Shown: positions 30,763 to 55,864 of the stretch, piece by piece
Position numbering within the stretch: the stretch's first letter is position 1
Layout of the letters: each line of letters starts with the position of its first letter
Sequence record: PP777464.1
Strand: one strand, 5' to 3'
Length of the DNA: 64,000 bases
Origin: Escherichia phage fEgEco12
Program-made: the position numbers and the translations under genes
The notes under the pieces: model-generated
What the model saw: only the letters and a program-made list of their open reading frames with translations
Databases searched by the model: none
What the model was told of the DNA's origin: nothing

Positions 30763-30832
30763 ATTTCCCTCCTTTATTCATTATACTATATTTAATCAAA
30801 AAGAATGCCAGTACTTGAGTACTGGCATTATG
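30763..30832 (-). promoter_or_regulatory. array cassette
   Basis: conserved cassette. Confidence 0.6.
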
Positions 30833-31942: not shown

Positions 31943-31950
31943 AATTCCTC

Positions 31951-33144
31951 CTATTGTTGCCATAACTGCGTTGGCATTAATGTTAATGTTTTAATTAAGT
32001 AAGTACCATCCGGTAATTTACTACCTGAACCGTTAAAGCCCCCACATGCATATAATTTATAATCTTTAGTTATAATTATTGTTCTGGACCAGTCTTTGGA
32101 TGCCATAAGAACATTGTCATATCCACCCTGTATCGCACTTAAAGAAAACGCCCCCCACGAAGTAATTATTGTTGTATTTCCCGTCCCTTCTTGACCATAT
32201 GTATTGATGCCTGCACTCCTGACATATGATGGGTATTGAGCCATAGGTGCACCAATTGTTGAGTTACCCATATTACTAGGACACAGGAAACCATCACTAA
32301 TATTCACTATAACCTGTGAATTCTGAACTGTAGTTAATTGGTTTGTAGTTGAAGTAGTACCATTCCCAGCTTGTCCAGAATTGTTTCTACCACTCCAGTA
32401 CACCCTACCGGCAGTAAACCACCAGGTAACATCATAAGTAGTACTTATATAATCGACGTTGGTTCGTATTAATTTATTAGTAAAAACGTATGAGCTAGTC
32501 CCACCACCACTTTCACCAAAGTTATCCTTACCACAAAACCATGCTTCTTTATTTGTTTTGAGATAGTGCGTACCCTGTAATGAACACGCCAATTGAGAAA
32601 CTTCACCCATACCAGTAACAACTGTTAGTACTGGAATGGGATTTTGGTTACCTGTTCCACATTCGGCATTTGCATTTTTACCACAAACAACGACTCTTCC
32701 ATCGTGTAGTAATATTCTAGTACTTTCACCTATATGTACACTCTTGATTAAATTAGCGTGTATATTTATTTTGTTAAATGCGGCAGTAACATCAGTCCAT
32801 GTTCTAAAATAACCATTAACTGGAGTTGCATCTCCATAATCGGGGAATGCTACTGTATTCCCTGTGAAATATATTCTATTATCCAAGTCAATCATCAATG
32901 ATCCATGAACGCCTAACCAAAAGGCTGCACAGTGCGTTGCCAGTACTGTAAAAGTTGAAACTGCCGATTGATTCCCTAGACCTAATTGGCTCAAGTTATT
33001 ACCACCATAACCGTATAGTGTATTCGTGGGCTTATGTAGATACATAGCATTAGTATAATGTTGCTGTAAAACATCAGTGAACTCAACTGGTTCAGGAATA
33101 GGCAGTTTATTCCCGTACTTAACCATTCTTGCAAAAGGTAACAT
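31951..33144 (-). CDS. RCC1-like repeat protein, array member 11
   Basis: GGNNLSQLGLG, GRNNSGQAGNG motifs; start at MLPF Met (alternative 33159). Confidence 0.7.
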   Translation of the reverse strand: MLPFARMVKYGNKLPIPEPVEFTDVLQQHYTNAMYLHKPTNTLYGYGGNNLSQLGLGNQSAVSTFTVLATHCAAFWLGVHGSLMIDLDNRIYFTGNTVAFPDYGDATPVNGYFRTWTDVTAAFNKINIHANLIKSVHIGESTRILLHDGRVVVCGKNANAECGTGNQNPIPVLTVVTGMGEVSQLACSLQGTHYLKTNKEAWFCGKDNFGESGGGTSSYVFTNKLIRTNVDYISTTYDVTWWFTAGRVYWSGRNNSGQAGNGTTSTTNQLTTVQNSQVIVNISDGFLCPSNMGNSTIGAPMAQYPSYVRSAGINTYGQEGTGNTTIITSWGAFSLSAIQGGYDNVLMASKDWSRTIIITKDYKLYACGGFNGSGSKLPDGTYLIKTLTLMPTQLWQQ

Positions 33145-33159
33145 AACTAAAATCTCCAT

Positions 33160-33219
33160 ATAATAATTATAATGTATTTACAAAAAAATACCAGTACGTA
33201 TTTCAGTACTGGTATAATG
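33160..33219 (-). promoter_or_regulatory. variant array cassette (hairpin ACCAGTAC..GTACTGGT, TATAAT, GGAG)
   Basis: diverged cassette. Confidence 0.5.
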
Positions 33220-34401
33220 TTATGGTAAAATAATAGCTTGTAACGAACTCATACCCAATGTTGGAACACTCGCCTGTGGTGCTGGTGCATTCACTTTTGG
33301 TGATGAAACCGCATATGTCATTCCTGAACCCAAATCTGGATCAAAAACTACAGCACAATAATTCCCACTATATATAAGTCCATTCTTGTATCCTTGTGCA
33401 CTTTGAATGCATTTCGTGAACGTCCCAATATCTGTAGTGGCATTTATTAAGTTCCTCCCACGATAACCGCAGGTGTATATGAAATTATCATCGCCTATGT
33501 ACATACTAGAATCCCCAGCAGAACTACATAGATACGACATATAAGCACGCATGTTTTTAGGAGCAACTGACAATGTACCAGCATAGAATTTATTATTCGA
33601 ACCCGAAATATCACCATCACCCAAAGCACCAAAACTCCCCCAACCAGTACCATAATATCTCTTATCACTCAAGAATATAATACAGTTGTTATTACACATC
33701 TTGACTTGATATATCAATGAAGGATCAACCCCAGGGAATGATTCAGTGTATGTTAGAACAGCCAGATCAGTACTAGCATTACATTGATGATATGTATTAG
33801 TACCAGAGGACAATATTGTACCATCAACTAATAGAATCCTCGAAGTGCCAGTACCAGCAGTACAAGCAACTGCACTTCCTGCACTTCCGGTGTATATTTG
33901 TCTGAAAGTAAAGAAACCAACAGTCTTACTCCCTTGTCCACTCCAACCAGTATTATCAACACCACACGCCCATACTGAACCATCTTCCATGATCATCATT
34001 ACACCATAACGTTCTATTGAAATATAAACAATCTTTTTAGTATCAACTGCACTAAATCTAGAAGTTATATCCGTCCAAACCTTTACACTTACCGCCGTCG
34101 CACTGGAAGTAGGATCTTCACCTGCTATCATTATCCTACCATTGTTAGTCAGATACATTGTCTGACTATAACCAGTACTACAAAACTTAACACTATCAGT
34201 CTCTGGAACTTTTAACCACTCGTTGTAACGTGTTACGTTAGTGTTATTACCTAACTGATAATAGTTATTCATCCCAGATACATATAACACACCATCCTTT
34301 ATTAAACTATAAGTCGCACTATAGTCACTACAGGTATAACGTGTACCCACAGGTGGCTCAACGACGTTCCCATAATCAAACATTCTAACAAAAGGTAACA
34401 T
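33220..34401 (-). CDS. RCC1-like repeat protein, array member 12
   Basis: GMNNYYQLGNNTN motif; leader. Confidence 0.75.
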   Translation of the reverse strand: MLPFVRMFDYGNVVEPPVGTRYTCSDYSATYSLIKDGVLYVSGMNNYYQLGNNTNVTRYNEWLKVPETDSVKFCSTGYSQTMYLTNNGRIMIAGEDPTSSATAVSVKVWTDITSRFSAVDTKKIVYISIERYGVMMIMEDGSVWACGVDNTGWSGQGSKTVGFFTFRQIYTGSAGSAVACTAGTGTSRILLVDGTILSSGTNTYHQCNASTDLAVLTYTESFPGVDPSLIYQVKMCNNNCIIFLSDKRYYGTGWGSFGALGDGDISGSNNKFYAGTLSVAPKNMRAYMSYLCSSAGDSSMYIGDDNFIYTCGYRGRNLINATTDIGTFTKCIQSAQGYKNGLIYSGNYCAVVFDPDLGSGMTYAVSSPKVNAPAPQASVPTLGMSSLQAIILP

Positions 34402-34474
34402 AATAAAATCTCCGTAATTAAATTATATAGTATTTACAAAAAATACCAGTACATATTTCAGTACTGACCTATTA
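34402..34474 (-). promoter_or_regulatory. variant array cassette
   Basis: hairpin + TATAAT + GGAG. Confidence 0.5.
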
Positions 34475-35596
34475 TTAAAAGGGCAACGGTAACTCAGTAA
34501 AAGTACTTACGTCCGGTAAACCATACATTGAATTAGCATCACCACAGTAATACCACTTCGTAGAATCATGTACCACCGATAAACGCTGTGCACATAACAC
34601 TTCCTGTATGTCATTAAACACCATCGGGACTAACTCATATGTATCCGCAAATGAAGATACACCACCACTCGCATGAAAAGTATTCGTCCCAGCATAAAAT
34701 AACTGATTAGTGTTCTTACCCACAGCAAATGTCATCAATATCCCATCATTCTCCCATAAAGAAGAAAACTTATCAACACTACCAGAAAGCTCTGTGTAAG
34801 TACTCGTAATGGCACTCGCAGCCGCCGCATTACCCATCTGTTTATTCAAGTTCTGTCCAGCAATAAAATATCTCGTTCGTGCACTAGAATCAGTATATAA
34901 TAACCCAGTGTTCGTAGTCATCATACCAATGTCCTTAATCGTCATACCAGTCTGTGAATAACTTAGATACGAAGTTAAATTAACATTATTACCCAACGAA
35001 CCGTTATCACTCATGCCACAACGATGTAATATACCACTTGTATCAACGTAGATTGTACTAACTAAACTCGTATACAACTCTTGTACATTATTCGCAATAA
35101 ACACAGCAGTCGCCTTATTACTAACCCCACCAAATGATAGGTTATTATCAAATCCCTTAGCGTATAATTGATTATTAGTAGTCAATAATCCAATCGTGAA
35201 ATAAGACATTTTCATATCCCTTACTGTACTCAAATCTACTGCCCCAAATTGGTGCGTAACATCTGTCCATGTGAAAATCTGTGCACTACCAACACCACCC
35301 GTTTCAAACCATTTGTCACCACAGTACAATATGCGATTACCCTTAGTAAAGATAACTGTTACCAATCCACTACCACACGCAAACTTTACATCACTTCTAA
35401 CCTTCGTCCAATCAAGTACATAGGTAGTGGTGTTATTACCTATACCTAACTTGCCATAACGGTTATAACCACGCACCCACAAATCACCACTCTTAGTAAT
35501 TAATAGTAATGCGTCTCCTGTACTTATTATTCGAAATCCCGAACTAGGATCAGGTACTTCATTTCCATAATCAAACATTCTAACAAAAGGTAACAT
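34475..35596 (-). CDS. RCC1-like repeat protein, array member 13
   Basis: GYNRYGKLGIGNNTT motif. Confidence 0.75.
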   Translation of the reverse strand: MLPFVRMFDYGNEVPDPSSGFRIISTGDALLLITKSGDLWVRGYNRYGKLGIGNNTTTYVLDWTKVRSDVKFACGSGLVTVIFTKGNRILYCGDKWFETGGVGSAQIFTWTDVTHQFGAVDLSTVRDMKMSYFTIGLLTTNNQLYAKGFDNNLSFGGVSNKATAVFIANNVQELYTSLVSTIYVDTSGILHRCGMSDNGSLGNNVNLTSYLSYSQTGMTIKDIGMMTTNTGLLYTDSSARTRYFIAGQNLNKQMGNAAAASAITSTYTELSGSVDKFSSLWENDGILMTFAVGKNTNQLFYAGTNTFHASGGVSSFADTYELVPMVFNDIQEVLCAQRLSVVHDSTKWYYCGDANSMYGLPDVSTFTELPLPF

Positions 35597-35668
35597 ATTT
35601 CCCTCCTTTATTCATTATAATATATTTAATACAAAAAAGAAAAGCCAGTACAGAGTACTGGCATAGTA
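35597..35668 (-). promoter_or_regulatory. array cassette
   Basis: conserved cassette. Confidence 0.6.
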
Positions 35669-36778
35669 TTACTTGGGTAATGGAATTGTAGTCCATCTAT
35701 TAGCGGCAACGCCCCCTGGTACATATGTAGGACTACCACTTACAGCAATAGTTTCATTACCATCATACACAACACTGAAGTTTGTGCACGTATACAACGA
35801 GGCGGTATCTGGATTGTAATTTATAAGTGTTAATGTATTGGTGAACAAATTCAATGCAGTAGTTGACCCGTTTTTACCAAACGAACCTGTCGTATATATC
35901 TTTCCTTCTGTTGTTGAGTACATGTTAACATATGACCCAGATGATGATTTGGCAATTTTATCTATCTTGCTATCTATCGTTTTAGAGTTAAATTGAAATG
36001 GATATACCTGTACGTTAGTATCTAAACCATTTCCTAGTTCCCCATTTAACTGCCACCCTGAGTGGTACATTCCCGAATTTGTATATGCAAGCGTACTATA
36101 CCCATTACCACCCATTATTTTAGTGCCAGATAATTTTAAACCAAACGATGTCCACTTACCAGTTTCATTTCCTATAGAACCATAAGCACTTGTCCCACAT
36201 GCTCGAAGCTCACCATTCGATGTTAGAAGCACTGTATTATTAACGTTACCAAATATATCAATAACCTGATTAGTTCCATTATTCAGTACTGAAGTGAAAG
36301 TACTCTGTGAGTAAGTACTACCTGAACCAACAGAACCATTTGTGTTCATACCTCTTCCATATACAGTTGTACCATCAGCACTAACATAGTGCATTGAATC
36401 AAAACCAATGGATATCATTTTAATATTAGAGATATCTGGGAATGAAGAAGTTACATCTACTCCACCTAATGGAATTGTAGTATTTCCTAAACCTAATGAG
36501 ACATTAGTTCCGTGCATTATAAATTTATCTTCTTTCAAATATAAAATATTGTATCCACCAGCCCATGCATTACTAACACCATTGGTAATTAGTACCCAAT
36601 TATTTTGTGTAGCAGTTCCATCAATATTTAACTGTTGATAGTTATTGATTCCACAACCATATAGCGAACCATCACCATATAGTACATATAAATTATCATA
36701 TCCTGCTATAACTTTCTTTATTTTTTTCGGTACTGGTGCAATATTCCCGTACTTAACCATTCTTACAAAAGGTAACAT
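35669..36778 (-). CDS. RCC1-like repeat protein, array member 14 (close paralog of member 5)
   Basis: start at MLPF Met. Confidence 0.75.
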   Translation of the reverse strand: MLPFVRMVKYGNIAPVPKKIKKVIAGYDNLYVLYGDGSLYGCGINNYQQLNIDGTATQNNWVLITNGVSNAWAGGYNILYLKEDKFIMHGTNVSLGLGNTTIPLGGVDVTSSFPDISNIKMISIGFDSMHYVSADGTTVYGRGMNTNGSVGSGSTYSQSTFTSVLNNGTNQVIDIFGNVNNTVLLTSNGELRACGTSAYGSIGNETGKWTSFGLKLSGTKIMGGNGYSTLAYTNSGMYHSGWQLNGELGNGLDTNVQVYPFQFNSKTIDSKIDKIAKSSSGSYVNMYSTTEGKIYTTGSFGKNGSTTALNLFTNTLTLINYNPDTASLYTCTNFSVVYDGNETIAVSGSPTYVPGGVAANRWTTIPLPK

Positions 36779-36850
36779 ATTTCCTCCTTTATTCATTATA
36801 CTATATTTAATACAAAAAGAAAAGCCAGTATCAAGTACTGGCATATTAAA
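36779..36850 (-). promoter_or_regulatory. array cassette
   Basis: conserved cassette. Confidence 0.6.
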
Positions 36851-37999
36851 TCACTGCCAAAATGACATATCAACTTCTGTGAAATTAAGCACGCTCTGCG
36901 TAGAAAGACCACCCATTGCTACCATCGCAATTCCACAATAATATAACTTCCCTTTGTCATTGAGTAACAATGTCCCAGATGGTGTTGTTACTAAATTGCA
37001 CGAAGTATTAAAAGAAGTATATGAAGGAGTATAGTAGTACTGATTAATGGTATTACCTACACCTAATTTTCCATACCCATTTTCTCCAGATGCGTAAAGT
37101 ACTTCATCACCTTTAGCAATATGTGATGCCATGTTACTAACACACGTGTATACAGCTCTAACTCCTGTACTCAATAATGTAGGAGTCTTGTATTGGATAT
37201 CAGTACTAGTAGATGTCCCACCTGTACCAAATTCATTACCGTATTGTGCACCGTATTGTTTACCACAAGCGTACAAATTATTATCCGATTTGATAAAAAA
37301 TGTACTCTGATAACTTACATTAAAATCTATAACATCCGAAGAAATCATCGTCACCCCAGTAATAGAAGTTTGATTACCCGTGCCCAACTGGTAGTAATAG
37401 TTAAAACCACAACCCCATAAAGTATTATCTTCTCGCAAATAAATGTTACCAACTGCCTTTTTAACCGAAGTTATAGTATCTACTCTTTTGAATGTGTTAA
37501 AAGAATTAATGTTTGTGCCATCACCAAATGATGATATGTTCGATATATTGTTAGTTCCACAACAATACAATGTACCATCGTTTGTTATCAAATTCACCTT
37601 CATATCATAAAAACTACTCATGTATTTTATATCAGAAACATTAATACCACTTGATGTTATCCACGTAGTACAGTCCGTCCACAAAGTTTTTCTATCAGTT
37701 ACACCAGTGAATGCCTTCGTGTTACCAGTGATAAAAACTTTTCCAGTACCTTTCTCTTCATACAATTGACAATCACTACTGTTATCTTCCAATAGAACTC
37801 GTTTAACATTCTCCGCACAAAGAATAAATTTACTCGATGCTACACCTGTACCAGTACCCCAATTCGTCGCAGAAGATGCATACAACTTGTCAGTATAAGT
37901 ATCATGAAGATACATAGAATCACTGGAATATATTTTATAACGACCAGAGTTGGTAGGAGCTTCATTCCCATAATCAAACATTCTAACAAAAGGTAACAT
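36851..37999 (-). CDS. RCC1-like repeat protein, array member 15
   Basis: GFNYYYQLGTGNQ, GENGYGKLGVGNT motifs; start at MLPF Met. Confidence 0.75.
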   Translation of the reverse strand: MLPFVRMFDYGNEAPTNSGRYKIYSSDSMYLHDTYTDKLYASSATNWGTGTGVASSKFILCAENVKRVLLEDNSSDCQLYEEKGTGKVFITGNTKAFTGVTDRKTLWTDCTTWITSSGINVSDIKYMSSFYDMKVNLITNDGTLYCCGTNNISNISSFGDGTNINSFNTFKRVDTITSVKKAVGNIYLREDNTLWGCGFNYYYQLGTGNQTSITGVTMISSDVIDFNVSYQSTFFIKSDNNLYACGKQYGAQYGNEFGTGGTSTSTDIQYKTPTLLSTGVRAVYTCVSNMASHIAKGDEVLYASGENGYGKLGVGNTINQYYYTPSYTSFNTSCNLVTTPSGTLLLNDKGKLYYCGIAMVAMGGLSTQSVLNFTEVDMSFWQ

Positions 38000-38047
38000 A
38001 TTTCCTCCTTTATTCATTATATCATATTTACCCCAAAAAGAAAACCC
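38000..38047 (-). promoter_or_regulatory. promoter/RBS cassette of array member 15
   Basis: same cassette sequence. Confidence 0.5.
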
Positions 38048-38094
38048 TTGACAACCTTTCAGTACTGGTGTACTATAGAAGGAATATAAGGAGA
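38048..38094 (+). promoter_or_regulatory. promoter of tiny-protein array (TTGACA-17-TACTAT, RBS AAGGAG)
   Basis: TTGACA 38048-38053, TACTAT 38071-38076. Confidence 0.6.
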
Positions 38095-38101
38095 ACTGTA
38101 C

Positions 38102-38329
38102 ATGACAACTACACTTAAGTACTACATTAATACTCTAACTGAACTAGAGTACGCGAAGTTTCTCGCGGATAGTTCGTGGCTAATTGAGCTAAAAACACAT
38201 AACAGTACTGGATGTAACCTTATGCTGAACAATGCACTTGATACCCTTGTAGTGAGTATTTTACACAGCAACATCTGCGGGAATAGCAATAAACAATTAT
38301 CAAAAATCTTAGTACTGGTAGCTCTATGA
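38102..38329 (+). CDS. tiny-protein family member (75 aa)
   Basis: first gene after promoter. Confidence 0.5.
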   Translation: MTTTLKYYINTLTELEYAKFLADSSWLIELKTHNSTGCNLMLNNALDTLVVSILHSNICGNSNKQLSKILVLVAL

Positions 38330-38538
38330 ACACTATGAACATTGAACAGTACTACATCGATGCACTACCAACAAAAGGTCTACGAGAAAGCCTACTGTAT
38401 ACACAAAATAATTATATAAACTTCAAACATTGTCCTAAACTCTTGAACTCGTACAGGAATAATAAAATAAGAAATGCTGTACAAGGGGTAGAAAGTATGC
38501 AATACTATTACATCCTAACCCTTTTAATCGAGCACTAA
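38326..38538 (+). CDS. tiny-protein family member (70 aa)
   Basis: ATGA overlap. Confidence 0.5.
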   Translation: MNTMNIEQYYIDALPTKGLRESLLYTQNNYINFKHCPKLLNSYRNNKIRNAVQGVESMQYYYILTLLIEH

Positions 38539-38539
38539 T

Positions 38540-38725
38540 ATGTATAAAGAATTCTACTGTAGTAAGCTGCACAAACAATACAGAGATTCATTTCCCAATG
38601 AACCTATGGATATGAATAGTCCCTTTTATAAATTTGACTTCAGACTGGAGACACGTTATGCAATAGAACATCAATTTCCTGAAACTAAGTACTTATCTAT
38701 CATGAACCTCATCTTTAAGTTCTAA
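38540..38725 (+). CDS. tiny-protein family member (61 aa, MYKEFY..)
   Basis: tandem paralog. Confidence 0.5.
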   Translation: MYKEFYCSKLHKQYRDSFPNEPMDMNSPFYKFDFRLETRYAIEHQFPETKYLSIMNLIFKF

Positions 38726-38736
38726 AAGAGTACTAT

Positions 38737-38949
38737 ATGAAAACTATGAACATACACCAGTACTACTTAGATATTCTCCCTAAAGATGTACAGTTCATCC
38801 TTAAACAAGAATACAGTACTTTAAAAAACCTTAAAAGAACCGCACCGAATGTATTAATCCTGCACCAAGAAAATGTAGTTGATAATATTCTACAAGGTGT
38901 ACCAGGGACCGAGTACTTTAACATAATAAGGCTAATTACATTACCATGA
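38737..38949 (+). CDS. tiny-protein family member (70 aa)
   Basis: tandem paralog. Confidence 0.5.
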   Translation: MKTMNIHQYYLDILPKDVQFILKQEYSTLKNLKRTAPNVLILHQENVVDNILQGVPGTEYFNIIRLITLP

Positions 38950-39131
38950 ATCATATATTATACTATTACCTAAATCTATCCGACAGGGACAAGTACACCC
39001 ACAACTCCAATGTATGGTACTACAAACGCGGTAGTATAAGAGACAAACAACATTACTTCTGTATTGCTATAAAAGAAGCACTAACAACTAAGTACACGTA
39101 CAGAGCAGTACTGAAACTTATTGATATGTAA
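38946..39131 (+). CDS. tiny-protein family member (61 aa, ..YRAVLKLIDM)
   Basis: tandem paralog. Confidence 0.5.
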   Translation: MNHILYYYLNLSDRDKYTHNSNVWYYKRGSIRDKQHYFCIAIKEALTTKYTYRAVLKLIDM

Positions 39132-39141
39132 AGAGAATACT

Positions 39142-39324
39142 ATGAGCATTGAATTGTACTTAAGTAAATTACAGCCTGGCGATAGATTCATCTACAATAA
39201 GTTCGAATTCAACTACAAGAACGGGAGCAACAAATATCGTCGAGGATACCTATATACAAGCACAAGAGATGCACAAAACGAAAAGTACACATACAGAGAA
39301 GTACTTAAACTAATCTCTATTTGA
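39142..39324 (+). CDS. tiny-protein family member (60 aa, ..YREVLKLISI)
   Basis: ATG start; track start 39121 is TTG. Confidence 0.5.
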   Translation: MSIELYLSKLQPGDRFIYNKFEFNYKNGSNKYRRGYLYTSTRDAQNEKYTYREVLKLISI

Positions 39325-39332
39325 GGTAATAT

Positions 39333-39518
39333 ATGAATACATTTGAGTACTATACAAATAAACTATCTATGCCTGAAAGATCTCATCTCTATGTGTGGAG
39401 AAATGCGTATAAAAGCGGCAATAAACTTATACAAAGAAATTCCCTTACAGTGTGTACAAATTTAATTAAAGCAGAGTACCGCACATATATTGAAGTACTC
39501 AAACTGATAGCAATATAA
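39333..39518 (+). CDS. tiny-protein family member (61 aa)
   Basis: tandem paralog. Confidence 0.5.
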   Translation: MNTFEYYTNKLSMPERSHLYVWRNAYKSGNKLIQRNSLTVCTNLIKAEYRTYIEVLKLIAI

Positions 39519-39526
39519 GGTACTCT

Positions 39527-39706
39527 ATGCAAGAATTCTATATCTATAACCTCCAGCACAAAGATAGATACAACTATAATAAATTCCAAAGGTACTACAC
39601 AGTCGGGAACAAAAGAGATAAAAAACGATACCTACTATCATGTACAGTAGAAGCACAAAACGAAAAGTACACGTACAGAGAAGTACTTAAACTAATCTTA
39701 ATCTAA
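39527..39706 (+). CDS. tiny-protein family member (59 aa, ..YREVLKLILI)
   Basis: below track cutoff; ATG ORF with family C-terminus. Confidence 0.45.
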   Translation: MQEFYIYNLQHKDRYNYNKFQRYYTVGNKRDKKRYLLSCTVEAQNEKYTYREVLKLILI

Positions 39707-39713
39707 GGTAGAC

Positions 39714-39902
39714 ATGAACACTTTTGAGTACTACTTCAATAAACTAAACCACATAGAACAAAGTATGCACAACTCATTTATTCAGCACCATCAATCATCT
39801 GCACATGGAATTAAAAATATATCGATTGAGATTATCACTACCCGTGTACTGTCATCTGAACGTTATATGTATATTGATGTACTGAAACTCATCTCTATGT
39901 AA
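39714..39902 (+). CDS. tiny-protein family member (62 aa)
   Basis: tandem paralog. Confidence 0.5.
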   Translation: MNTFEYYFNKLNHIEQSMHNSFIQHHQSSAHGIKNISIEIITTRVLSSERYMYIDVLKLISM

Positions 39903-39910
39903 GGAATAAT

Positions 39911-40090
39911 ATGCAAGAATACTATATAGAACACATAAGCATTAAAGACCGTTTCATGTACGACACCTTCGTGAAGTACTACAACCTGGCAACTAATAGT
40001 ACTAAAAATATTAATCTCAATAGCTGCATTCATCACGCACTAACAAAAGATAATCCCTTCAGGGAAATCCTCGCTCTCGCATCTGTATAA
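39911..40090 (+). CDS. tiny-protein family member (59 aa, MQEYYI..)
   Basis: below track cutoff. Confidence 0.4.
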   Translation: MQEYYIEHISIKDRFMYDTFVKYYNLATNSTKNINLNSCIHHALTKDNPFREILALASV

Positions 40091-40100
40091 AGGAAACCAA

Positions 40101-40760
40101 ATGAAACTTAATGCACACAGCAAACAATACCTTAAGCACTTTAAATACCTCAACAGTATTCAAGCAGAATCTTTTACACCAGCATATACTTACGACCCGT
40201 GTGTACTAAAGAAACGAAATAAAAAGAAAAAATCCAGAAATGTTCTCGTATCTAAGAACCTCAAATCGTACTTGAAGAAAAATAATATAGCTCTTGCTTT
40301 TATTAATATCTATAATACTGATTTAAAAGTATTGAGTACTAATACCAGCACAAAAGCACTAAAGAATGCATCTATCTATATACACATGGATAATATCCCG
40401 TGCACTATAATTCTATCTTTCGGGAATGTATACTTCTTCGGGAATTGTAATAGCACCCATGATATCAGTACTGCACAATTCCAAATCGGCGATATGTACT
40501 GCATGGGTTCAGAAAAAATACACGATAACATGCACTTCTTCCAAAAGCAACGTACTAACGAAACTGATACAGTACTGCAATTCCTCAAAGAACTAGAACA
40601 CAAAGAATTATCCGAGGAAGAAGAATTCATGTACAGTACTGTAATCGATAATCCAGGACTCTATAAAAACGCGTACAAACTAACAAAACATGTACAGGAA
40701 CTTATCAGTACTGATAAGAAATTTCATCACCTCATTACGTATATTTCAAACTATGTATAA
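40101..40760 (+). CDS. hypothetical protein (219 aa) inside the tiny-protein array
   Basis: ATG with AGGAAA RBS. Confidence 0.55.
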   Translation: MKLNAHSKQYLKHFKYLNSIQAESFTPAYTYDPCVLKKRNKKKKSRNVLVSKNLKSYLKKNNIALAFINIYNTDLKVLSTNTSTKALKNASIYIHMDNIPCTIILSFGNVYFFGNCNSTHDISTAQFQIGDMYCMGSEKIHDNMHFFQKQRTNETDTVLQFLKELEHKELSEEEEFMYSTVIDNPGLYKNAYKLTKHVQELISTDKKFHHLITYISNYV

Positions 40761-40926
40761 AGAATTCTACCTCTCGTACCTTAATTCCGATATAGTAACA
40801 TCCAATACATTCAGTACTAAAATTATCTATAATGAAGTAATGAAAGAATGTATTAAAGGTGCTATTAACCCTAAAGATACGTATGACTTGTACTATGCAG
40901 TACTAACCCTTGTTTTCACGAAATAA
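40753..40926 (+). CDS. tiny-protein family member (57 aa, MYKEFYLSYL..)
   Basis: in-frame ATG; track start 40690 overlaps upstream gene. Confidence 0.45.
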   Translation: MYKEFYLSYLNSDIVTSNTFSTKIIYNEVMKECIKGAINPKDTYDLYYAVLTLVFTK

Positions 40927-40934
40927 CACATAAT

Positions 40935-41126
40935 ATGAATAACCACAAAGAATACTACATAGAGAAACTCCCAATGTATCTCCAACACCTTCTACCAACA
41001 GAACCATTGGGTATAGAAAAAAACTACGAAAAAGACTACTTCATTCAGTGCACTAAATCCTCGATATATATTGAAGACTATAATCGAGTACTGTATCACA
41101 TCCTTTTACTAATATATAGGTACTAA
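40935..41126 (+). CDS. tiny-protein family member (63 aa, MNNHKEYY..LLIYRY)
   Basis: tandem paralog. Confidence 0.5.
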   Translation: MNNHKEYYIEKLPMYLQHLLPTEPLGIEKNYEKDYFIQCTKSSIYIEDYNRVLYHILLLIYRY

Positions 41127-41127
41127 T

Positions 41128-41310
41128 ATGCACAAAGAATACTACACACAATTTCTCCCCAGTATATTTGAACACTACGCCAGATATAAAGTCCCCCTGG
41201 ATAACGATTTGGCAGTACTGGGATTCAATAATTGCATAGAACGCAGTATAGAAAATAGTAGTAGCTATGACCAATTATATAACACTATCCTACTTATATT
41301 CAGGTACTAA
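41128..41310 (+). CDS. tiny-protein family member (60 aa)
   Basis: tandem paralog. Confidence 0.5.
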   Translation: MHKEYYTQFLPSIFEHYARYKVPLDNDLAVLGFNNCIERSIENSSSYDQLYNTILLIFRY

Positions 41311-41311
41311 T

Positions 41312-41500
41312 ATGCATAAAGAATACTACACAAAATATTTCCCAATGTACCTCAGTACTAATCTATTAGATAAACCTCGCGGTATCAATGCACAAAACGA
41401 TAAAGTGTACTTTACTATGTGCACTAAAGCATGTATACTAGATTTTGATAGCTATCATCGAGTACTGTATCATACCCTGTACCTAGCTTTCGTGTACTAA
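41312..41500 (+). CDS. tiny-protein family member (62 aa, MHKEYYTKYF..)
   Basis: in-frame ATG after upstream stop. Confidence 0.5.
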   Translation: MHKEYYTKYFPMYLSTNLLDKPRGINAQNDKVYFTMCTKACILDFDSYHRVLYHTLYLAFVY

Positions 41501-41510
41501 AGAGGCCAAT

Positions 41511-41717
41511 ATGAACGAACAGAAAGAATTTTACACCAAACACCTCAGTGCATCAGAACAAATGTTTCTAAGGAGTGTATCACCTTTACGTTTAGATACA
41601 CCACACGCCAGAGATTGCTTTAATAATTGTATACGTATTACTCTAGAAGCTTTAGAAAACAATAACAAAAATATTCAGTACTCAGGCGTAATGGGACTAA
41701 TATTTTTCTATGAATAA
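41511..41717 (+). CDS. tiny-protein family member (68 aa, MNEQKEFYTKHLS..)
   Basis: near-duplicate of 42094. Confidence 0.5.
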   Translation: MNEQKEFYTKHLSASEQMFLRSVSPLRLDTPHARDCFNNCIRITLEALENNNKNIQYSGVMGLIFFYE

Positions 41718-41901
41718 TTACAAAGAATTCTACTTAAGCCATCTCGATCTAAACTCCCAAATGCTTATACCACTAAACCCAATAGATATCAAGGATAAGA
41801 AAAATACCAAACAATTCCACTACCACACACTATGTGCTATCAACCCAGATTATAATACATATAAACTGTACTACATTCTCGCCCTAATATATAGGTACTG
41901 A
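41710..41901 (+). CDS. tiny-protein family member (63 aa)
   Basis: tandem paralog. Confidence 0.5.
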   Translation: MNNYKEFYLSHLDLNSQMLIPLNPIDIKDKKNTKQFHYHTLCAINPDYNTYKLYYILALIYRY

Positions 41902-41902
41902 T

Positions 41903-42088
41903 ATGCATAGAGAATACTATATACAATTTGTTAAAGGGAACTACAAACACGCCGTCCCCGTAAACCCCTTAAATTCTAATGACCCAAGTACTATATTCTT
42001 GTTCCATGACGCAATACGTACAGTACTCAATACTAAAGATGAACAGGTGCAGTACGTATTCTTACTATTACTTATATACAGACACTAA
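41903..42088 (+). CDS. tiny-protein family member (61 aa)
   Basis: tandem paralog. Confidence 0.5.
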   Translation: MHREYYIQFVKGNYKHAVPVNPLNSNDPSTIFLFHDAIRTVLNTKDEQVQYVFLLLLIYRH

Positions 42089-42093
42089 CTAAT

Positions 42094-42303
42094 ATGAATA
42101 AAGAACATAAAGAATTCTATTCCAAACACCTCAGCCCCACAGAACAAATGTTTCTAAGGACTACAGCACCTTTAAGTACTGATACTTATTTCGGCAGAGT
42201 ATGCTACAATAATTGTATTCAAATGACTTTAAACGCAAACGACAATAATAACAGTACTAATATGTACTCCGGCATCATAGGTATACTATTTCTATATGAA
42301 TAA
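42094..42303 (+). CDS. tiny-protein family member (69 aa)
   Basis: near-duplicate of 41511. Confidence 0.5.
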   Translation: MNKEHKEFYSKHLSPTEQMFLRTTAPLSTDTYFGRVCYNNCIQMTLNANDNNNSTNMYSGIIGILFLYE

Positions 42304-42487
42304 AGAACATAAAGAGTACTATATAAGTAAACTCAAAGAGAATGAACAAGCATGGGTTAACAATTTAATCCCCCTGGCAATGACTCAATACGAATTTAAT
42401 ATGTGTACAAAGATTGTTTTAACTACTAATGATATCTCTAATACGTACTACTTCCTATTAAGAGTACTATATGGTACTTTGAAATAA
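42296..42487 (+). CDS. tiny-protein family member (63 aa)
   Basis: tandem paralog. Confidence 0.5.
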   Translation: MNKEHKEYYISKLKENEQAWVNNLIPLAMTQYEFNMCTKIVLTTNDISNTYYFLLRVLYGTLK

Positions 42488-42498
42488 TAAGGTATACT

Positions 42499-42705
42499 AT
42501 GCAGAACATAAAAAACTATAAAGAGTACTATATAAGTAAACTACCACCGACTGACCAAGCATGGATTAGATCTATAATAGTACTGGCATTTAATAGATAT
42601 GCATTTAACAGATGTACCGAGATTGCTATAGACCCTTATAATATTAAAGAGAATGTACAGCATAATCAGTACTACTATATGTTAATGCTTATATATAGGA
42701 AGTAA
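42499..42705 (+). CDS. tiny-protein family member (68 aa)
   Basis: last array member. Confidence 0.5.
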   Translation: MQNIKNYKEYYISKLPPTDQAWIRSIIVLAFNRYAFNRCTEIAIDPYNIKENVQHNQYYYMLMLIYRK

Positions 42706-43372
42706 TTCAACATATAGACAGGGGAAGCTCCGCAGGGAAAGCATTGGACAGGCTTTAACAATTAGAAGAATTGTTAAAATTCAGCCTGGACAAATGCGAT
42801 CACTAGGATTCTCCCCAGGCTAAACCCCGTAATCATATGTAGTCATAAGTAATCATATATAAACATTTATATGAGCACCGTAGAATCACAGAATGATTAT
42901 ATATGATTCAGTACTGATTATTATAGACAAGATTACTCAAGAATGCTAGGGAAGGATTCAGTACTGCCCTAAAAGTATTCAGTACTGAAGGTGGCGATAT
43001 CCCACTAAGTAGGCAGAGGAAGTCTGCCGTACTTTGTAGTTTCCAAGCTCCTTTTCCATTTTGCAAATTACATCAAATGTAATCAAAAGTAATCACGCAA
43101 TGATTAGTACTGAATTATTACTTTCACCTTAATTACAATTACCCTTTTACCCTTCGGGGTAAAATTCCATTACCCCTTGAGGCTCCAGCAAAAAGTTGGT
43201 TAGTACTCCATCCTAAATCTCGATCCTAAAAATTTTGGAGTACCTATGAAATAAAAGTTGGATCTTCGAAAGTTGAAATTTACGTTGGGACGTTTATGAT
43301 TTGTGGGATATAATGATGTTTGTAATCGGGTAGTTCTCAAGAATATCAGTACTGAAAGATGAAAGAAAGTTA

Positions 43373-43400
43373 TTGACTTTATGATTCAGTACTGTATAAT
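43373..43400 (+). promoter_or_regulatory. orphan sigma70-like promoter (TTGACT-16-TATAAT) with no ORF downstream
   Basis: TTGACT 43373-43378, TATAAT 43395-43400. Confidence 0.45.
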
Positions 43401-43584
43401 GTTCTACATAGGGTGATGAGTTGCTGCGAACAATTCATTTACTCTACCTCCTGTCGTGAGACAGTACAGAAAAGATAGTTCCTCCTGTGGTGGTACATCT
43501 TTTTGAACCTCATATGAAAATCGTAATAACAGTACTGATATTAACAGAATGGTGTCAGTACTGATTTTAATCTAAAGCATTATG

Positions 43585-43604
43585 CCACCAGCTTGTGCTG
43601 GTGG
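43585..43604 (+). other. hairpin CCACCAGC(TTGT)GCTGGTGG containing a Chi octamer
   Basis: perfect 8-bp inverted repeat; GCTGGTGG at 43597-43604. Confidence 0.5.
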
Positions 43605-43740
43605 ATTCCCTCTAACAGTATTCAGTACTACATGATGGTCTTCATCCTCCTAGGGTAACATAGTGAGGGCTATGATGGCAGTACTGAATACTCCCTTTCA
43701 AAAGATAGATCTATGGTATAGTACTGACGGATTTTGGGTG

Positions 43741-43920
43741 TAGTTACCCTGGATGGATTTTGGGCGTAGATATGTCTAGCCCTCCAGAAGTCTGGAAGTA
43801 AAGATGGCTATCCATCTAGACGGCTAAACGGCTAGATTTCTGGATGGCTGGATGGCTGGATGGCTAGACGTTTGGACGGCTAAACGGCTAGATGGTTACA
43901 CGTCTGGAAGTATAGACGGC
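43741..43920. repeat. iteron-like repeat cluster (3x tandem TGGATGGC; 2x 19-bp GACGGCTAAACGGCTAGAT; 2x GTCTGGAAGTA) followed by AT-rich stretch
   Basis: direct repeats read from sequence; no ORF. Confidence 0.6.
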
Positions 43921-44551
43921 TAAATCAAAATTTTATTTTGTTTTTTCCAATAGTTCCCCTACCGCGTGGGGATAGTTTCCCCGCAGTATCTGGTGTTAGA
44001 TTTTTCTGAATCTGGAATCATTATCTTATAAACTGGGGGCAATGTCAACGGCCTGGACGGATATTTTTAAAAATTTTTTCAGTACTGAATTTTGGGCGTA
44101 ACTATGCACCCGGTGGGCTTGAGTCTTTCTCGACTTGATGGAACTATTATACAGTACTGAAAAAATAAAGCAATACCCTGGAAGCAAAAAAGTTTTAATT
44201 AATTTGCTTGCTATCCTGGGCCGGACTATGGTACTATATTTCAGTACTGAGAAAGTGCGTTTACCTGCTAGGGTGCGGGAGTGTATCCTTTTTTTATATC
44301 TTGAATTTTGGACGGATCTTCCCACCCCCTGGGGTATCCGCTTTCTCGCGTCTATGTAGTAATTATACGCTTTTTCAGGATCAAGTCAATACCTAAAAAC
44401 AAAATAATTGAAAATAATTTAACGCGTTTAAACGGCCTGTAAAGCCCTGGAATGATTGGAATGGTGCAAATGTATAGCTTATGTGTATTAATGCGTTAGA
44501 ATGCGTCTGAGGACGTTTTACGGGGTATAGGGATGATTTAGTGGATTGATT

Positions 44552-44638
44552 CAGTACTGAATAATAGTACTCCTATATAGAAAGATAGTTCCCCTGGATG
44601 ATTGCAGTACTGAATAATAGTACTCCTATATAGAAAGA
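44552..44638. repeat. 34-bp direct repeat CAGTACTGAATAATAGTACTCCTATATAGAAAGA x2 (period 53)
   Basis: copies at 44552-44585 and 44605-44638. Confidence 0.65.
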
Positions 44639-44666
44639 AAACTATTTTAAAAGTATTTGTAGAAAG

Positions 44667-44729
44667 TACTTGCACCGTACTGATAAAAGCGTATAATGTT
44701 TTACATCGAGAGCGGGAACACTTCCCGCT
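44667..44729 (+). promoter_or_regulatory. promoter + leader stem-loop module
   Basis: TTGCAC 44670-44675, TATAAT 44692-44697, hairpin AGCGGGAACACTTCCCGCT. Confidence 0.65.
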
Positions 44730-44752
44730 ACACATTAAGAGAGATTAAAACG

Positions 44753-45115
44753 ATGGCGACTCAAATCAATAAAATCATGCTTAACCTGGTAAACTTCCGC
44801 GATGAGATGAAAGGTCTTCCGGCTGAAACTGTAAAAATTCACATTGCAGCTTATCGGGAACTTATTGCAATGTTGCCGCTTAAGCGTGAACAATACGCCG
44901 CTACTTTGATGCTGGATTCAATGATCCATATAATGATCTCAAATGATTTGACGATGGTTTATCAGTATATGGGCGAAAATTTCGCGGTGTGTAGTAAGCC
45001 AGTACCAGGGATGGCAACAACTGAGGAATTGCACGGCTTAAACTTAAAACAAGATGCATGGGATAATATGCCTCGTTTCCTGGTATGGGCTGACAGTGGC
45101 AAAATTTACAAATAA
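44753..45115 (+). CDS. hypothetical protein (120 aa)
   Basis: ATG downstream of the module; track ORF N-terminus is promoter read-through. Confidence 0.55.
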   Translation: MATQINKIMLNLVNFRDEMKGLPAETVKIHIAAYRELIAMLPLKREQYAATLMLDSMIHIMISNDLTMVYQYMGENFAVCSKPVPGMATTEELHGLNLKQDAWDNMPRFLVWADSGKIYK

Positions 45116-45125
45116 GTTTAATAAA

Positions 45126-45188
45126 GTACTTGCAAACTATGTTTAATGGCGTATAATGTTTTACATCAGGTGGGGAATAGTTCCCCCC
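45126..45188 (+). promoter_or_regulatory. promoter + leader stem-loop module
   Basis: TTGCAA 45130-45135, TATAAT 45152-45157, hairpin GGGGAATAGTTCCCC. Confidence 0.65.
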
Positions 45189-45208
45189 TATATAAGAGGA
45201 TTAAAAAA

Positions 45209-45448
45209 ATGGCTAAATCAAAAATGTTCTTAGGTCACAAAAACAAAACTCATTGGAATGTAAGCCTGTGGATTAATAACGATGAGGGATTGTATCGGTT
45301 GGCCCTGGACTTTATTGCCGCCAATACTAATCGCAATGATGCGGCCCGTCATATGATGTTATTTTTAGAACAGACTGGACAAGATAAAACACCGGACGGA
45401 TTCAAATATAGCACTACTGCGATCCGTGCGGCGATGGTTGGAATGTAA
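45209..45448 (+). CDS. hypothetical protein (79 aa)
   Basis: ATG after leader hairpin and AGAGGA RBS. Confidence 0.5.
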   Translation: MAKSKMFLGHKNKTHWNVSLWINNDEGLYRLALDFIAANTNRNDAARHMMLFLEQTGQDKTPDGFKYSTTAIRAAMVGM

Positions 45449-45534
45449 TAGAATTTATTTAAAGTACTATCATTTTTTTGCGATAGTACTTTATAATAGT
45501 GTTTTATTCATACACCAACGATAAGGGCAACAGC

Positions 45535-47250: not shown

Positions 47251-47415
47251 ATGAATACTTTTACCTTCGCTCAATTGAACGCCCTGGATGTATTGTCTGA
47301 TGCTTTGCGGGATGCAACTGAAAGCGGTTTATTTGACAATGTTGACATTCACCCTGATGTAATTAATAATTTTTGTGATGCTATCGCAGAAGTACTGGAA
47401 GATCTAAAAAAATAA
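47251..47415 (+). CDS. hypothetical small acidic protein (54 aa)
   Basis: ATG after module with GAGGAA RBS; below track cutoff. Confidence 0.45.
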   Translation: MNTFTFAQLNALDVLSDALRDATESGLFDNVDIHPDVINNFCDAIAEVLEDLKK

Positions 47416-47421
47416 TAGAAA

Positions 47422-47485
47422 GTACTTGCAATTAGTTTTCAGTACTGTATAATGGTTTACATCAAAGGGAGAAATGGTTCTCCCT
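47422..47485 (+). promoter_or_regulatory. promoter + leader stem-loop module
   Basis: TTGCAA 47426-47431, TATAAT 47448-47453, hairpin GGGAGAAATGGTTCTCCC. Confidence 0.65.
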
Positions 47486-47503
47486 GGTAATGAGGAAAAT
47501 ACA

Positions 47504-55457: not shown

Positions 55458-55781
55458 ATGTACATTCATACTACTGTCACAAAGGAAGTCCGTTGCCAGT
55501 TCGAAAGTATTCCGGGCGTATGTTTCATCACTGGTACGTTTTCCCCTGGTGATCGTGATAATCCAGTACTGTTACAGTTACGCCATCCATTATGGGATAA
55601 AGCATTTGATCTGCCGTTGAATGAATTCGCAACCACTGCTGATAAGTACATTAAAAATATTCGCGAGAATGATTGCCTATTCATTAATGCTTTTAGTGAT
55701 GCCGCGTTAAGTGAGATCCATGCTGTATTGGTTGCAATCATGGAATCAATGGAGAAAACTATATTCAAACAAGGTGAATAA
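55458..55781 (+). CDS. hypothetical protein (107 aa)
   Basis: ATG after GAGGA RBS. Confidence 0.55.
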   Translation: MYIHTTVTKEVRCQFESIPGVCFITGTFSPGDRDNPVLLQLRHPLWDKAFDLPLNEFATTADKYIKNIRENDCLFINAFSDAALSEIHAVLVAIMESMEKTIFKQGE

Positions 55782-55786
55782 AAACT

Positions 55787-55846
55787 ATTGACAATGCAAT
55801 CCAGTACTGTATAATAGTTTACATGAAGGGGAGAAATGATTCTCCC
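55787..55846 (+). promoter_or_regulatory. promoter + leader stem-loop module
   Basis: TTGACA 55787-55792, TATAAT 55808-55813, hairpin GGGGAGAAATGATTCTCCCC. Confidence 0.65.
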
Positions 55847-55864
55847 CACTAAGAGGAAAGAAAA

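Follow-up and report, generated by a model that had tools for sequence, protein, structure and literature searches.

A conserved non-coding leader at the physical genome end of the jumbo coliphage fEgEco12

Introduction

A 64,000-bp stretch of the genome of Escherichia phage fEgEco12 (PP777464.1; all of this stretch is called the window below) contains a region of about two kilobases, 42706-44752, that lies between two gene blocks and holds no convincing open reading frame (ORF). Its first 302 bp are unique DNA; a physical end of the virion DNA follows at position 43008, and the remaining 1,745 bp are the non-coding leader of the direct terminal repeat (DTR). Base 43008 is a fixed physical end of the virion DNA and the first base of the DTR, and the sequence 43008-64000 occurs at each end of the packaged DNA. 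The region is thus the junction between unique DNA and a 20,993-bp DTR, together with the leader that opens each DTR copy, and it probably acts as an end module.

An initial annotation of the window, made from its sequence, had proposed a replication origin, a packaging site or a module junction at this place, and its interpretation was partly supported. The packaging site fits, with the inner DTR boundary lying within the region, and so does the module junction, with a hypervariable array of tiny paralogous genes on the left and a conserved DTR of early genes on the right. The origin fared less well and is weighed below. The boundary and the length of the DTR have been published; the anatomy of the leader (its conservation across genera, a hairpin made of Chi sites, the abundance of Chi in the DTR and a tandem array found in several phage families) appears to be undescribed. 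The papers searched on Asteriusvirus and Rak2-like DTRs say nothing about promoters, non-coding DNA or an origin in the leader, and querying the literature for the literal motifs gave nothing but primer noise. What had been an unexplained gap without ORFs in a phage genome of 375 kb thereby becomes a defined object, a chromosome end with a control region.

The genome end and the terminal repeat

The elements at and around the genome end are as follows.

43008-64000, plus strand: right-hand copy of the direct terminal repeat, from the G17 duplication and the published length of 20,993 bp
42829-42916, no strand: left copy of a repeat that brackets the terminus, with GTAATCA units at a 10-bp period, then AATCAC..AATGATTA..CAGTACTG
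42996-43007, no strand: final 12 bp of unique DNA before the cut (GATATCCCACTA), from an alignment of seven relatives
43008-43033, no strand: first base of the DTR and terminal imperfect palindrome AGTAGGCAGA-ggaag-TCTGCC(g)TACT
43072-43122, no strand: right copy of the bracketing repeat, with two GTAATCA units and AATCACGCAATGATTAGTACTG

The region was matched by megablast to about 40 Asteriusvirus jumbo coliphages (PBECO4, 121Q, G17, phAPEC6 and others), the nearest being Ecwhy_1 at 99.1% identity. In several long assemblies the stretch sits 19-21 kb from the end of the record, and a terminal repeat was therefore tested for. Positions 1-20668 of G17 are identical to 350150-370817, which is an exact duplication of 20,668 bp at both ends, and the inner boundary of this DTR (20668) aligns with window position 43008. 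The records of BF17, CRJP21 and E9.1 begin at the base homologous to 43008 and the record of WPEC3 ends at it, in each case with AGTAGGCAGAGGAAGTCTGCC. These four phages were assembled in different countries and laboratories. Together with G17 they place the end at one fixed, non-permuted nucleotide in five independent assemblies.

The span 43008-64000 measures 20,993 bp. This equals the length of the fEgEco12 DTR determined with PhageTerm and confirmed by restriction digests, which gave a linear restriction map (fEgEco12 paper). A terminal redundancy of about 20 kb was deduced from read coverage in G17 (G17 paper), and the DTR of Sharanji was given as 20,668 bp by PhageTerm (Sharanji paper). 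In other genera (fENko, CBB, GAP32) the termini lie at the homologous position; those of fENko and CBB had been determined by PhageTerm and by read depth, respectively (respective papers). The DTR carries small early-type genes, each behind its own sigma-70 promoter. The last base of the window, 64000, is the other physical terminus (...GGGCGGGTAACCT), and position 1 of G17 aligns there; the window thus forms the final 64 kb of a record laid out by its true ends. A headful packaging site, with imprecise cuts and permuted DNA, was considered and rejected on the ends at one base in five assemblies and the reported linear map. The initial annotation had named physical ends located elsewhere as the result that would count against it; the end maps inside the region.

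The sequence around the cut is organized. Conservation starts 12 bp before it (GATATCCCACTA|), and the DNA further left is rich in indels. GAP32, which belongs to another genus, has CCACTA directly before its homologous terminus sequence (CCACTA|TATCTGTTCCTGAAGTC, or CCACTA|TATCTG..GAAGTC, compared with CCACTA|AGTAGGCAGAGGAAGTC in the window). The terminal palindrome occupies the first 26 nt of the DTR and its fold begins at base 1 (z = -3.8); the PhageTerm terminus of fENko likewise opens with a palindrome. The two copies of the flanking repeat (two families in a repeat search, one of them at 88% identity; period 10 according to TRF) bracket the cut, with GTAATCA found by exact pattern search at 42829, 42849, 43079 and 43089. 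The cut-site sequence CACTA|AGTAGGCAGAGGAAGTC would allow the approximately 40 Asteriusvirus records, which are now cut arbitrarily, to be re-oriented without reads.

A conserved leader without genes

Two genes delimit the ORF-free region.

42499-42705, plus strand: last gene of the tiny-gene array, 68 amino acids, a phrog_11711 paralog; left edge of the region
44753-45115, plus strand: first DTR gene, 120 amino acids, phrog_7352 (phrog match 1e-57); right edge of the region

The statement that the region lacks a convincing ORF held up. All five candidate ORFs in 42706-44752 carry stops or frameshifts in relatives, and their substitutions are spread evenly over the codon positions (e.g., 46/43/37), compared with the third-position excess expected of a gene in 44753-45115 (48/72/157). 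A 99-residue minus-strand ORF annotated by some pipelines was rejected for its stops, frameshifts and flat codon-position pattern. Careful annotators have left the interval from the homologue of 121Q_265 to that of 121Q_266 without a gene, and the short ORFs that some deposited records hold across the leader are spurious products of automatic annotation. A search of 42000-45500 against Rfam at a permissive threshold gave two sub-threshold chance matches (E = 0.18 and 0.79), and a scan for tRNA and tmRNA genes gave none. The gene at the left edge is intact in five of the six relatives that have it.

The leader contains no genes and is conserved as much as or more than the genes next to it. In comparison with seven relatives, the unique side shows identities of 0.2-0.8 and changing gene content, and the leader shows 0.79-0.97. 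Within the leader, 43900-44500 reaches 0.92-0.97, compared with 0.84-0.95 in the neighbouring genes. The leader is also collinear in at least five related genera, with counterparts in Klebsiella phage fENko-Kae01 (a jumbo phage without genus assignment), Eneladusvirus and Mimasvirus (CBB, GAP32, XbC2). The common order runs from the terminus through an inverted repeat ending in TTTTGGAGTACC, a sigma-70 promoter about 260-365 bp from the end, GAATTTTGGGTGTA, an array of 8-bp units about 700-980 bp from the end and a T-rich tract to TTCCGCG, a stem-loop, GCAGWATC and an opposite-strand promoter.

As the initial annotation had noted, the region separates two arms of different composition. GC content rises from 0.33 in the left arm to 0.39 in the right arm, and GC skew changes from about -0.2 to about +0.1. 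Identity to the seven relatives likewise rises, from 0.2-0.8 on the left to 0.8-0.97 on the right. The sign of the skew flips (the cumulative minimum) at 42-43 kb without a change in the direction of transcription, and this flip coincides with the module and DTR boundary and with the change in composition.

Chi sites in the terminal repeat

43585-43604, no strand: hairpin with an 8-bp stem that is the Chi octamer read both ways (CCACCAGC-ttgt-GCTGGTGG), z = -5.0
43597, 49688, 53875, 54385, 55335, 56584, 58932, 60830, 62409 and 62632, plus strand: top-strand Chi sites of the DTR
43585 and 49626, minus strand: opposite-strand Chi sites of the DTR

The inverted repeat at 43585-43604, already listed in the initial annotation, was recovered, and its stem carries Chi at 43597-43604 on the top strand and at 43585-43592 on the bottom strand. 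The bottom-strand site lies 578 bp from the end at 43008. Eight Asteriusvirus genomes and fENko all have this stem unchanged, with differing loops (TTGT, ACAA, TTAA); EJP2 is without the Chi hairpin but keeps separate plus- and minus-strand Chi sites. The annotators of G17 recorded this hairpin as a terminator.

Chi is strongly enriched in the window. GCTGGTGG occurs 20 times, compared with about 0.3 expected per strand (about 0.7 in total), and all 20 copies have different flanks. It is the commonest of the 168 octamers of the same composition and also of the GC-rich octamers. The DTR has 10 sites on the top strand and two on the bottom strand (0.57 per kb), and the pattern in the G17 DTR matches. 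A 50-kb sample from the interior of G17 has 0.02 per kb, which makes the DTR about 25-fold richer, and no site lies in the unique flanks. All 10 top-strand sites face the end at 64000, and the nearest lies about 1.4 kb in. RecBCD responds to a Chi site on the strand that ends 3' at its point of entry into the DNA (Chi paper). By this orientation rule, the top-strand sites would be active for RecBCD entering at 64000, and the bottom-strand site of the hairpin would be active for entry at 43008. No report of terminal Chi clusters in jumbo phages was found in the literature.

Two further observations touch on Chi. In G17, the span 100001-150000 has an annotated RecA/UvsX-like recombinase, a RecD-like helicase and a Cas4-like PD-(D/E)XK nuclease; possession of its own recombinase, helicase and nuclease bears on whether such a phage uses or bypasses host RecBCD at Chi-rich ends. 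On the minus strand of the window, 19665-38017 holds about 16 tandem paralogous genes of about 375-400 amino acids each, and their glycine-rich coding repeats account for several minus-strand Chi and Chi-like octamers. The single gene tested of these about 16 paralogs (22701-23849) encodes an RCC1-repeat (beta-propeller) protein.

The 8-bp array, T-rich tract and stem-loop

43730-43769, plus strand: two GATTTTGGG(T/C)GTAG repeats, with variants AATTTTGGGCGTAA at 44088 and AATTTTGGACGG at 44304
43816-43927, plus strand: array of about 14 CTRGAYGG units at an 8-bp period, 112 bp long, which includes TGGATGGC three times and the 19-bp repeat twice
43925-43950, plus strand: T-rich tract (TCAAAATTTTATTTTGTTTTTTCCAA) directly 3' of the array, located by exact pattern search
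43945-43990, no strand: invariant TTCC..CCGCG, a covarying stem-loop (43967-43983) and invariant GCAGWATC, compared in seven genera or lineages

The repeats reported by the initial annotation were all found at the positions given, with one correction. Exact pattern searches located three tandem copies of TGGATGGC (43841-43864), the 19-bp repeat GACGGCTAAACGGCTAGAT at 43819 and 43875, and GTCTGGAAGTA at 43790 and 43902. Three copies had been claimed for GATTTTGGG(T/C)GTAG; those at 43730 and 43756 are exact, and the third (44088) and a fourth (44304) are variants. GAATTTTGGGTGTA lies before the array in CBB, GAP32 and pEa12, and the DRA copies of T5 read GGATTTTGGGG and AATTTGGGAAG. The array itself has a lag-8 identity of 0.65, compared with 0.25 +/- 0.04 (maximum 0.375) in 2000 shuffles, and TRF scores it 109 at period 32. 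Its length differs by -24, -8 or +35 bp between genomes.

A BLAST search turned up look-alikes of the array near terminal-repeat boundaries of phages from three families, 81 records in all. Where a jumbo-phage record begins at the physical end, the array is about 700-980 bp away from that end. The T7-like phage PGT2 has it at 43-115 bp inside an exact 260-bp DTR, with an identical stretch of 20 nt (GACGTTTAGACGGCTAAATG) in common with CBB and GAP32. In the T5-like Vibrio phages Pontus and D254 it lies between T5 DRD-type repeats and TTATCCACA DnaA boxes, which is the counterpart of T5 Repeat Region 3. T5 itself is without the array, though it has GATTTTGGG-type repeats in common with these leaders. 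A host origin of the array was rejected, with no match in 5,426 complete Escherichia coli genomes.

The AT-rich tract of the initial annotation exists as a T-rich stretch of 26 nt, with a homologous stretch after the array in all genera compared. It is only moderately unusual, with 77.5% AT per 40-mer in a genome of 64% AT, and it is not the most AT-rich part of the region. In the stem-loop that follows, four of the six pairs show double compensatory changes among the seven genera or lineages, and 92% of cells are paired; none of 500 shuffles reaches this score and slid controls give 21-50%. Its arms differ between genera yet remain complementary.

Promoters, hairpins and predicted transcripts

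43203-43243, no strand: inverted repeat GTACTCCA-N25-TGGAGTAC (z = -3.8), sequence kept across genera (...AAATCTCGATCCTAAAAATTTTGGAGTACC)
43373-43400, plus strand: orphan sigma-70 promoter TTGACT-16-TATAAT (11/12 match), CAGTACTG in its spacer
43451-43464, plus strand: small hairpin CTGTC-GTGA-GACAG within the predicted transcript, invariant in 7/7 sequences
44020-44048, minus strand: sigma-70 promoter TTGACA-17-GATAAT (11/12 match), firing towards the array and the genome end
44146-44175, minus strand: inverted copy of the 43373-43400 core, TTGCTT-16-TATAAT with CAGTACTG; weak promoter candidate of low confidence
44362-44389, minus strand: sigma-70 promoter TTGACT-16-TATAAT (11/12 match)
44542-44638, plus strand: tandem duplication of 53 bp (91% identity), its unit carrying CAGTACTGAATAATAGTACT
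44670-44728, plus strand: promoter of the first DTR gene, TTGCAC-16-TATAAT, with a hairpin in the 5' untranslated region (5'-UTR), GCGGGAAC-a-CTTCCCGC; conserved

The inverted repeat at 43203-43243 is 93% identical to that of relatives and has a counterpart about 90-240 bp from the end in fENko, CBB, GAP32, XbC2 and pEa12. The orphan promoter at 43373-43400 had been predicted by the initial annotation, and the scan agreed. Both of its hexamers are kept in 8/8 genomes with no ORF downstream, and other genera have a promoter at a similar distance from the end. Its predicted product is a non-coding RNA of about 200 nt (about 43407-43610), for which a consensus fold includes nine pairs with compensatory changes.

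The opposite strand also carries promoters. In 121Q, most of the spacer of the 44020-44048 promoter is replaced and both hexamers are kept; at the same place, TTGCAA-N16/17-GATAAT or TATTAT can be read in the sequences of Yen9 and CBB. The -10 region of the 44362-44389 promoter (GTAATTATAC) has a match of about 92% in Salmonella phages Munch and 7t3 and in Klebsiella phage fENko, where TTGACG-N17-TATAAT can be read as its counterpart. The candidate at 44146-44175 is 80% complementary to 43371-43400 and was not picked up in the promoter scan. A long hairpin at 44270-44330 was dropped as no better than shuffles in this phage (z = 0.22); related arms occur in other genera.

Upstream of the promoter of the first DTR gene, a 34-bp repeat had been reported. 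Its copies were found at 44552-44585 and 44605-44638, and the actual tandem unit is longer, 44-53 bp. The 53-bp unit is a variable-number tandem repeat, present once in G17, twice here and at least three times in JNE01. GTATAATGTTnTACAT is common to this promoter and the orphan promoter. Elsewhere in the DTR, early promoters have the form of a cassette, TTGACA-aagtatat-CAGTACTG-TATAAT-agtttaCAT followed by a 5'-UTR hairpin GGGGAGAA...TTCTCCCC (e.g., at 55775-55850, 60185-60260, 60675-60750 and 47410-47490). This combination of promoter and hairpin suggests a shared post-transcriptional control element of many early mRNAs.

The most prominent motif of the region, missed by the initial annotation, is the CAGTACTG palindrome, with 13 copies in the region and 73 in the whole window, where about one would be expected. 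The shorter palindrome AGTACT is found 290 times in the window (about 22 expected, 13-fold), in coding and non-coding DNA, e.g., at 42909, 43347, 43387, 44080 and 44552. The DTR and the tiny-gene array have 6-8 copies per kb, compared with 0.8-2.9 per kb elsewhere. AGTACT fills the spacer directly upstream of TATAAT in many right-arm promoters and is plentiful in the leaders of other jumbo-phage genera. Such strong over-representation of a palindrome is unusual for a phage, and nothing on AGTACT in jumbo phages was found in the literature.

The unique side

42721-42816, plus strand: structured 3' element after the tiny-gene array, with a hairpin (42749-42788) inside an outer stem GGGGAAGC...GATTCTCCCC

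The hairpin of this element has a DNA fold of -11.5 kcal/mol (z = -6.9 compared with shuffles), and its stem AACAATT/AATTGTT is changed to AACATAT/ATATGTT in G17, A4 and UE-S1, which is a compensatory change. The array that precedes it (38000-42705, plus strand) consists of tiny paralogous genes of about 60-70 amino acids (phrog_11711), which differ greatly in copy number and content from one isolate to another. The array has a negative GC skew and a strongly positive AT skew, opposite to other plus-strand genes.

A proposed end module

How could such a region serve the ends of a very large linear genome? In packaging, terminase would recognize concatemers and cut them at CACTA|AGTAGGCAG..., with the 12 bp, the palindrome and the GTAATCA repeats bracketing the cut. 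A second cut would fall at 64000, and the DTR would then be duplicated by fill-in synthesis as in DTR phages of the T7 type. After injection, RecBCD acting on the free end would meet a correctly oriented Chi at 578 bp, in the hairpin of paired Chi sites, and, entering at the other end, it would reach a series of ten co-oriented Chi sites after about 1.4 kb. Degradation would then give way to RecA loading, and the repeat would be preserved and able to recombine. Recombination would give circles or concatemers and D-loops that prime replication. Host sigma-70 RNA polymerase would fire from both strands of the leader to give short untranslated transcripts, and the promoter at the right edge would drive the first gene of the early block. 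The array, T-rich tract and stem-loop would form a putative protein-binding or structural platform tied to terminal-repeat boundaries, its likeliest roles being end recognition by the packaging machinery or control of DNA entry. These proposals yield testable hypotheses: ends guarded by Chi and early genes duplicated in the repeat for survival of the genome on entry, and end recognition for packaging.

Several points weigh against the end module. The window holds a single DTR copy, and its duplication is deduced from relatives and from the matching published length. The two DTR boundaries (43008, and 64000 joined to the start of unique DNA taken from G17) share no obvious recognition motif that would define the terminase site; the comparison gave nothing in common beyond AGTACT-type words. 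A terminal hairpin was rejected as a universal feature, being present in Asteriusvirus and fENko and not at Mimasvirus termini. The strand bias of Chi in the DTR runs parallel to the orientation of the genes and to the G-rich strand, both possible contributors to it. The leader of A4 is without Chi, and the phage may guard its ends in another way. Lastly, the covariation term of the 200-nt transcript is small (-0.56), which is weak support for a structured RNA.

Alternative readings

It is hardly credible that the leader consists of decayed genes or neutral spacer with repeats raised by chance slippage. The copy numbers of the 8-bp unit and of the 53-bp repeat do differ between isolates, and automatic annotators place short ORFs in the leader, which speaks for this reading. 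Neutral DNA would not be expected to show 92-97% identity in seven relatives over 43900-44500, above the flanking genes, nor an architecture collinear in at least five genera, compensatory changes in a stem-loop and promoter hexamers kept while a spacer is replaced. An iteron origin, in which an initiator binds the repeats at 43816-43927 and melts the T-rich tract at 43925-43950 as at lambda ori or plasmid origins, was one of the ideas of the initial annotation and is distinctly improbable. The tandem array abuts the T-rich tract, promoters aim into the highly conserved block from both sides as at transcription-activated origins, and the cumulative GC-skew minimum falls at 42-43 kb with transcription direction constant. 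The reading is not supported, since three features that define such an origin, namely repeats of iteron length, DnaA boxes and a nearby initiator gene, are all lacking. The unit has 8 bp rather than 17-22 bp, the 19-bp repeat (two copies) falls in the 8-bp register and the copy number drifts by whole units. TTWTNCACA is absent from 42706-44700, and the ten flanking proteins, over several kb, include no initiator-like or DNA-binding family. A T7-like phage has its look-alike array 43-115 bp from the end, T5-like phages have theirs in the terminal-repeat boundary region, and the origins of T5 are reported to map near its genome centre (T5 paper). The skew change has the module and DTR boundary and the composition change beside it, and the T-rich tract is just 77.5% AT per 40-mer. 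GATC is not enriched. A start of replication primed by recombination at the Chi-bearing ends is a plausible conjecture and would be a mechanism other than an iteron origin.

Two other readings are compatible additions to the end module rather than exclusive rivals to it. That the region is mainly a regulatory locus for non-coding RNA, with a plus-strand RNA of about 200 nt from 43373-43400 and minus-strand RNAs from 44048 and 44389, is unlikely. It draws on conserved promoters without downstream ORFs, on the invariant hairpin of the predicted 200-nt RNA, which also has some compensatory pairs, on the covarying stem-loop at 43967-43983 and on PA5oct, which has two abundant ORF-less transcripts in its DTR. 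No Rfam family matches, the covariation term of the 200-nt RNA is small, and an RNA role leaves unexplained the position of the block at the DNA end in every genus, the invariant (non-covarying) Chi stem and the recurrence of the array at boundaries in unrelated phages. Somewhat less likely still is control of DNA entry like that of the T5 injection-stop signal or the T7 leading-end leader, in which the DTR early genes enter and are expressed first and the leader either pauses transfer or promotes it through pulling coupled to transcription. The region resembles T5 Repeat Region 3: both are untranslated, contain many repeats and palindromes, exceed nearby ORFs in conservation and sit astride a terminal-repeat boundary, here with about 300 bp on the unique side. 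T5-like Vibrio phages have the 8-bp array between DRD-type repeats and DnaA boxes, GATTTTGGG repeats and AATGCGAATGA..GAATCA palindromes are common to T5 Repeat Region 3 and jumbo-phage leaders, and DTR genes are early in PA5oct. The window has no paired DnaA boxes, no IRD'-spacer-IRC' and no DRD repeats (TGTGCAAATCCGAC); the pre-early genes of T5 are transcribed towards the repeat region and the DTR genes here are transcribed away from the leader; and the papers on fEgEco12, CBB and Sharanji contain no report of two-step transfer for this phage group.

Comparison with known systems

The end module can be compared with several known systems. The published DTRs of fEgEco12, G17, Sharanji, fENko-Kae01 and CBB (about 20-22 kb) are the same object, with their boundary at the homologous base, and these papers give the repeat length alone, with no leader anatomy. 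PA5oct has been described as related to 121Q and PBECO4, with early genes and two abundant ORF-less transcripts in its DTR (PA5oct papers). Non-coding DNA within a long DTR that carries early genes is thus found in both, transcribed there and predicted to be transcribed here; the likeness is one of description, and the PA5oct RNAs map well inside a 39-kb DTR, at 8 and 22 kb, rather than next to the boundary as here. In iteron origins (lambda ori, P1 oriR, plasmid origins), tandem direct repeats abut an A+T-rich tract; here the array abuts a T-rich tract that is only moderately AT-rich. They differ from this region in its 8-bp unit, its lack of an initiator gene and of DnaA boxes, and the presence of the array also at the ends of unrelated DTR phages.

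Terminal clusters of Chi in active orientation have been documented in P1 and in LLS-type lambdoid phages. As here, Chi is far above expectation and clustered at or near a terminal repeat in the active orientation. The present case differs in that the phage is a virulent jumbo phage with its own RecA/UvsX-like recombinase, and in that one site is an inverted Chi pair in a hairpin that would serve the opposite end.

T5 Repeat Region 3 is a 1.2-kb region (9194-10409) that lies mostly in the terminal repeat (LTR) and overruns unique DNA by 270 bp (T5 paper). Extending over 302 bp of unique DNA and the first 1,745 bp of the DTR, 42706-44752 is likewise a large untranslated region of repeats and palindromes across a terminal-repeat boundary, with GATTTTGGG-type repeats. 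DRD-type repeats are present in T5, Pontus and D254, and T5-like phages of Vibrio and Aeromonas carry the 8-bp array, as here, in the counterpart of Repeat Region 3. Strict positional homology with T5 was rejected on the opposite orientation of genes to the repeat region and the different sequence of the T5 boundary repeat. T5 injects in two steps, for which the jumbo phages are not known. An 11-mer is common to T5 and jumbo-phage leaders. Palindromes resembling Fur boxes (AATGCGAATGA..GAATCATT) were noticed in T5 Repeat Region 3 (9610-9640) and in the leaders of the fENko and Eneladusvirus DTRs, and are absent from the window and from Mimasvirus.

In the T7 group, Dunn and Studier are said to have described in 1983 a concatemer junction with arrays of short repeats (SRL and SRR) that flank the terminal repeat or lie inside it. 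This group also has an exact DTR, fixed ends, arrays of 7-8-bp units near the end and early promoters for host polymerase in the first kilobase of the leading end. The array of PGT2, inside its 260-bp DTR, is nearly identical in sequence. The DTR of fEgEco12 is 80-fold longer, its array is separated from the end by about 810 bp instead of tens of bp, and its terminase and polymerase systems are unrelated. The array at jumbo, T5-like and T7-like boundaries ties the leader to the T5 repeat region and, reportedly, to the T7 arrays, which offers a comparative route to its function. One tentative possibility is that the array (CTRGAYGG units ending ...GACGTTTAGACGGCTAAAYG), T-rich tract and stem-loop form a mobile terminal-repeat boundary element, read by one common end-marking or processing factor, host-derived or horizontally exchanged, in three unrelated lineages of DTR phages of Gammaproteobacteria, namely Rak2-like jumbo myoviruses, T5-like siphoviruses and T7-like podoviruses. 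If this is true, the DTR leader of jumbo phages and the injection stop region of T5 would be versions of one end-control module.

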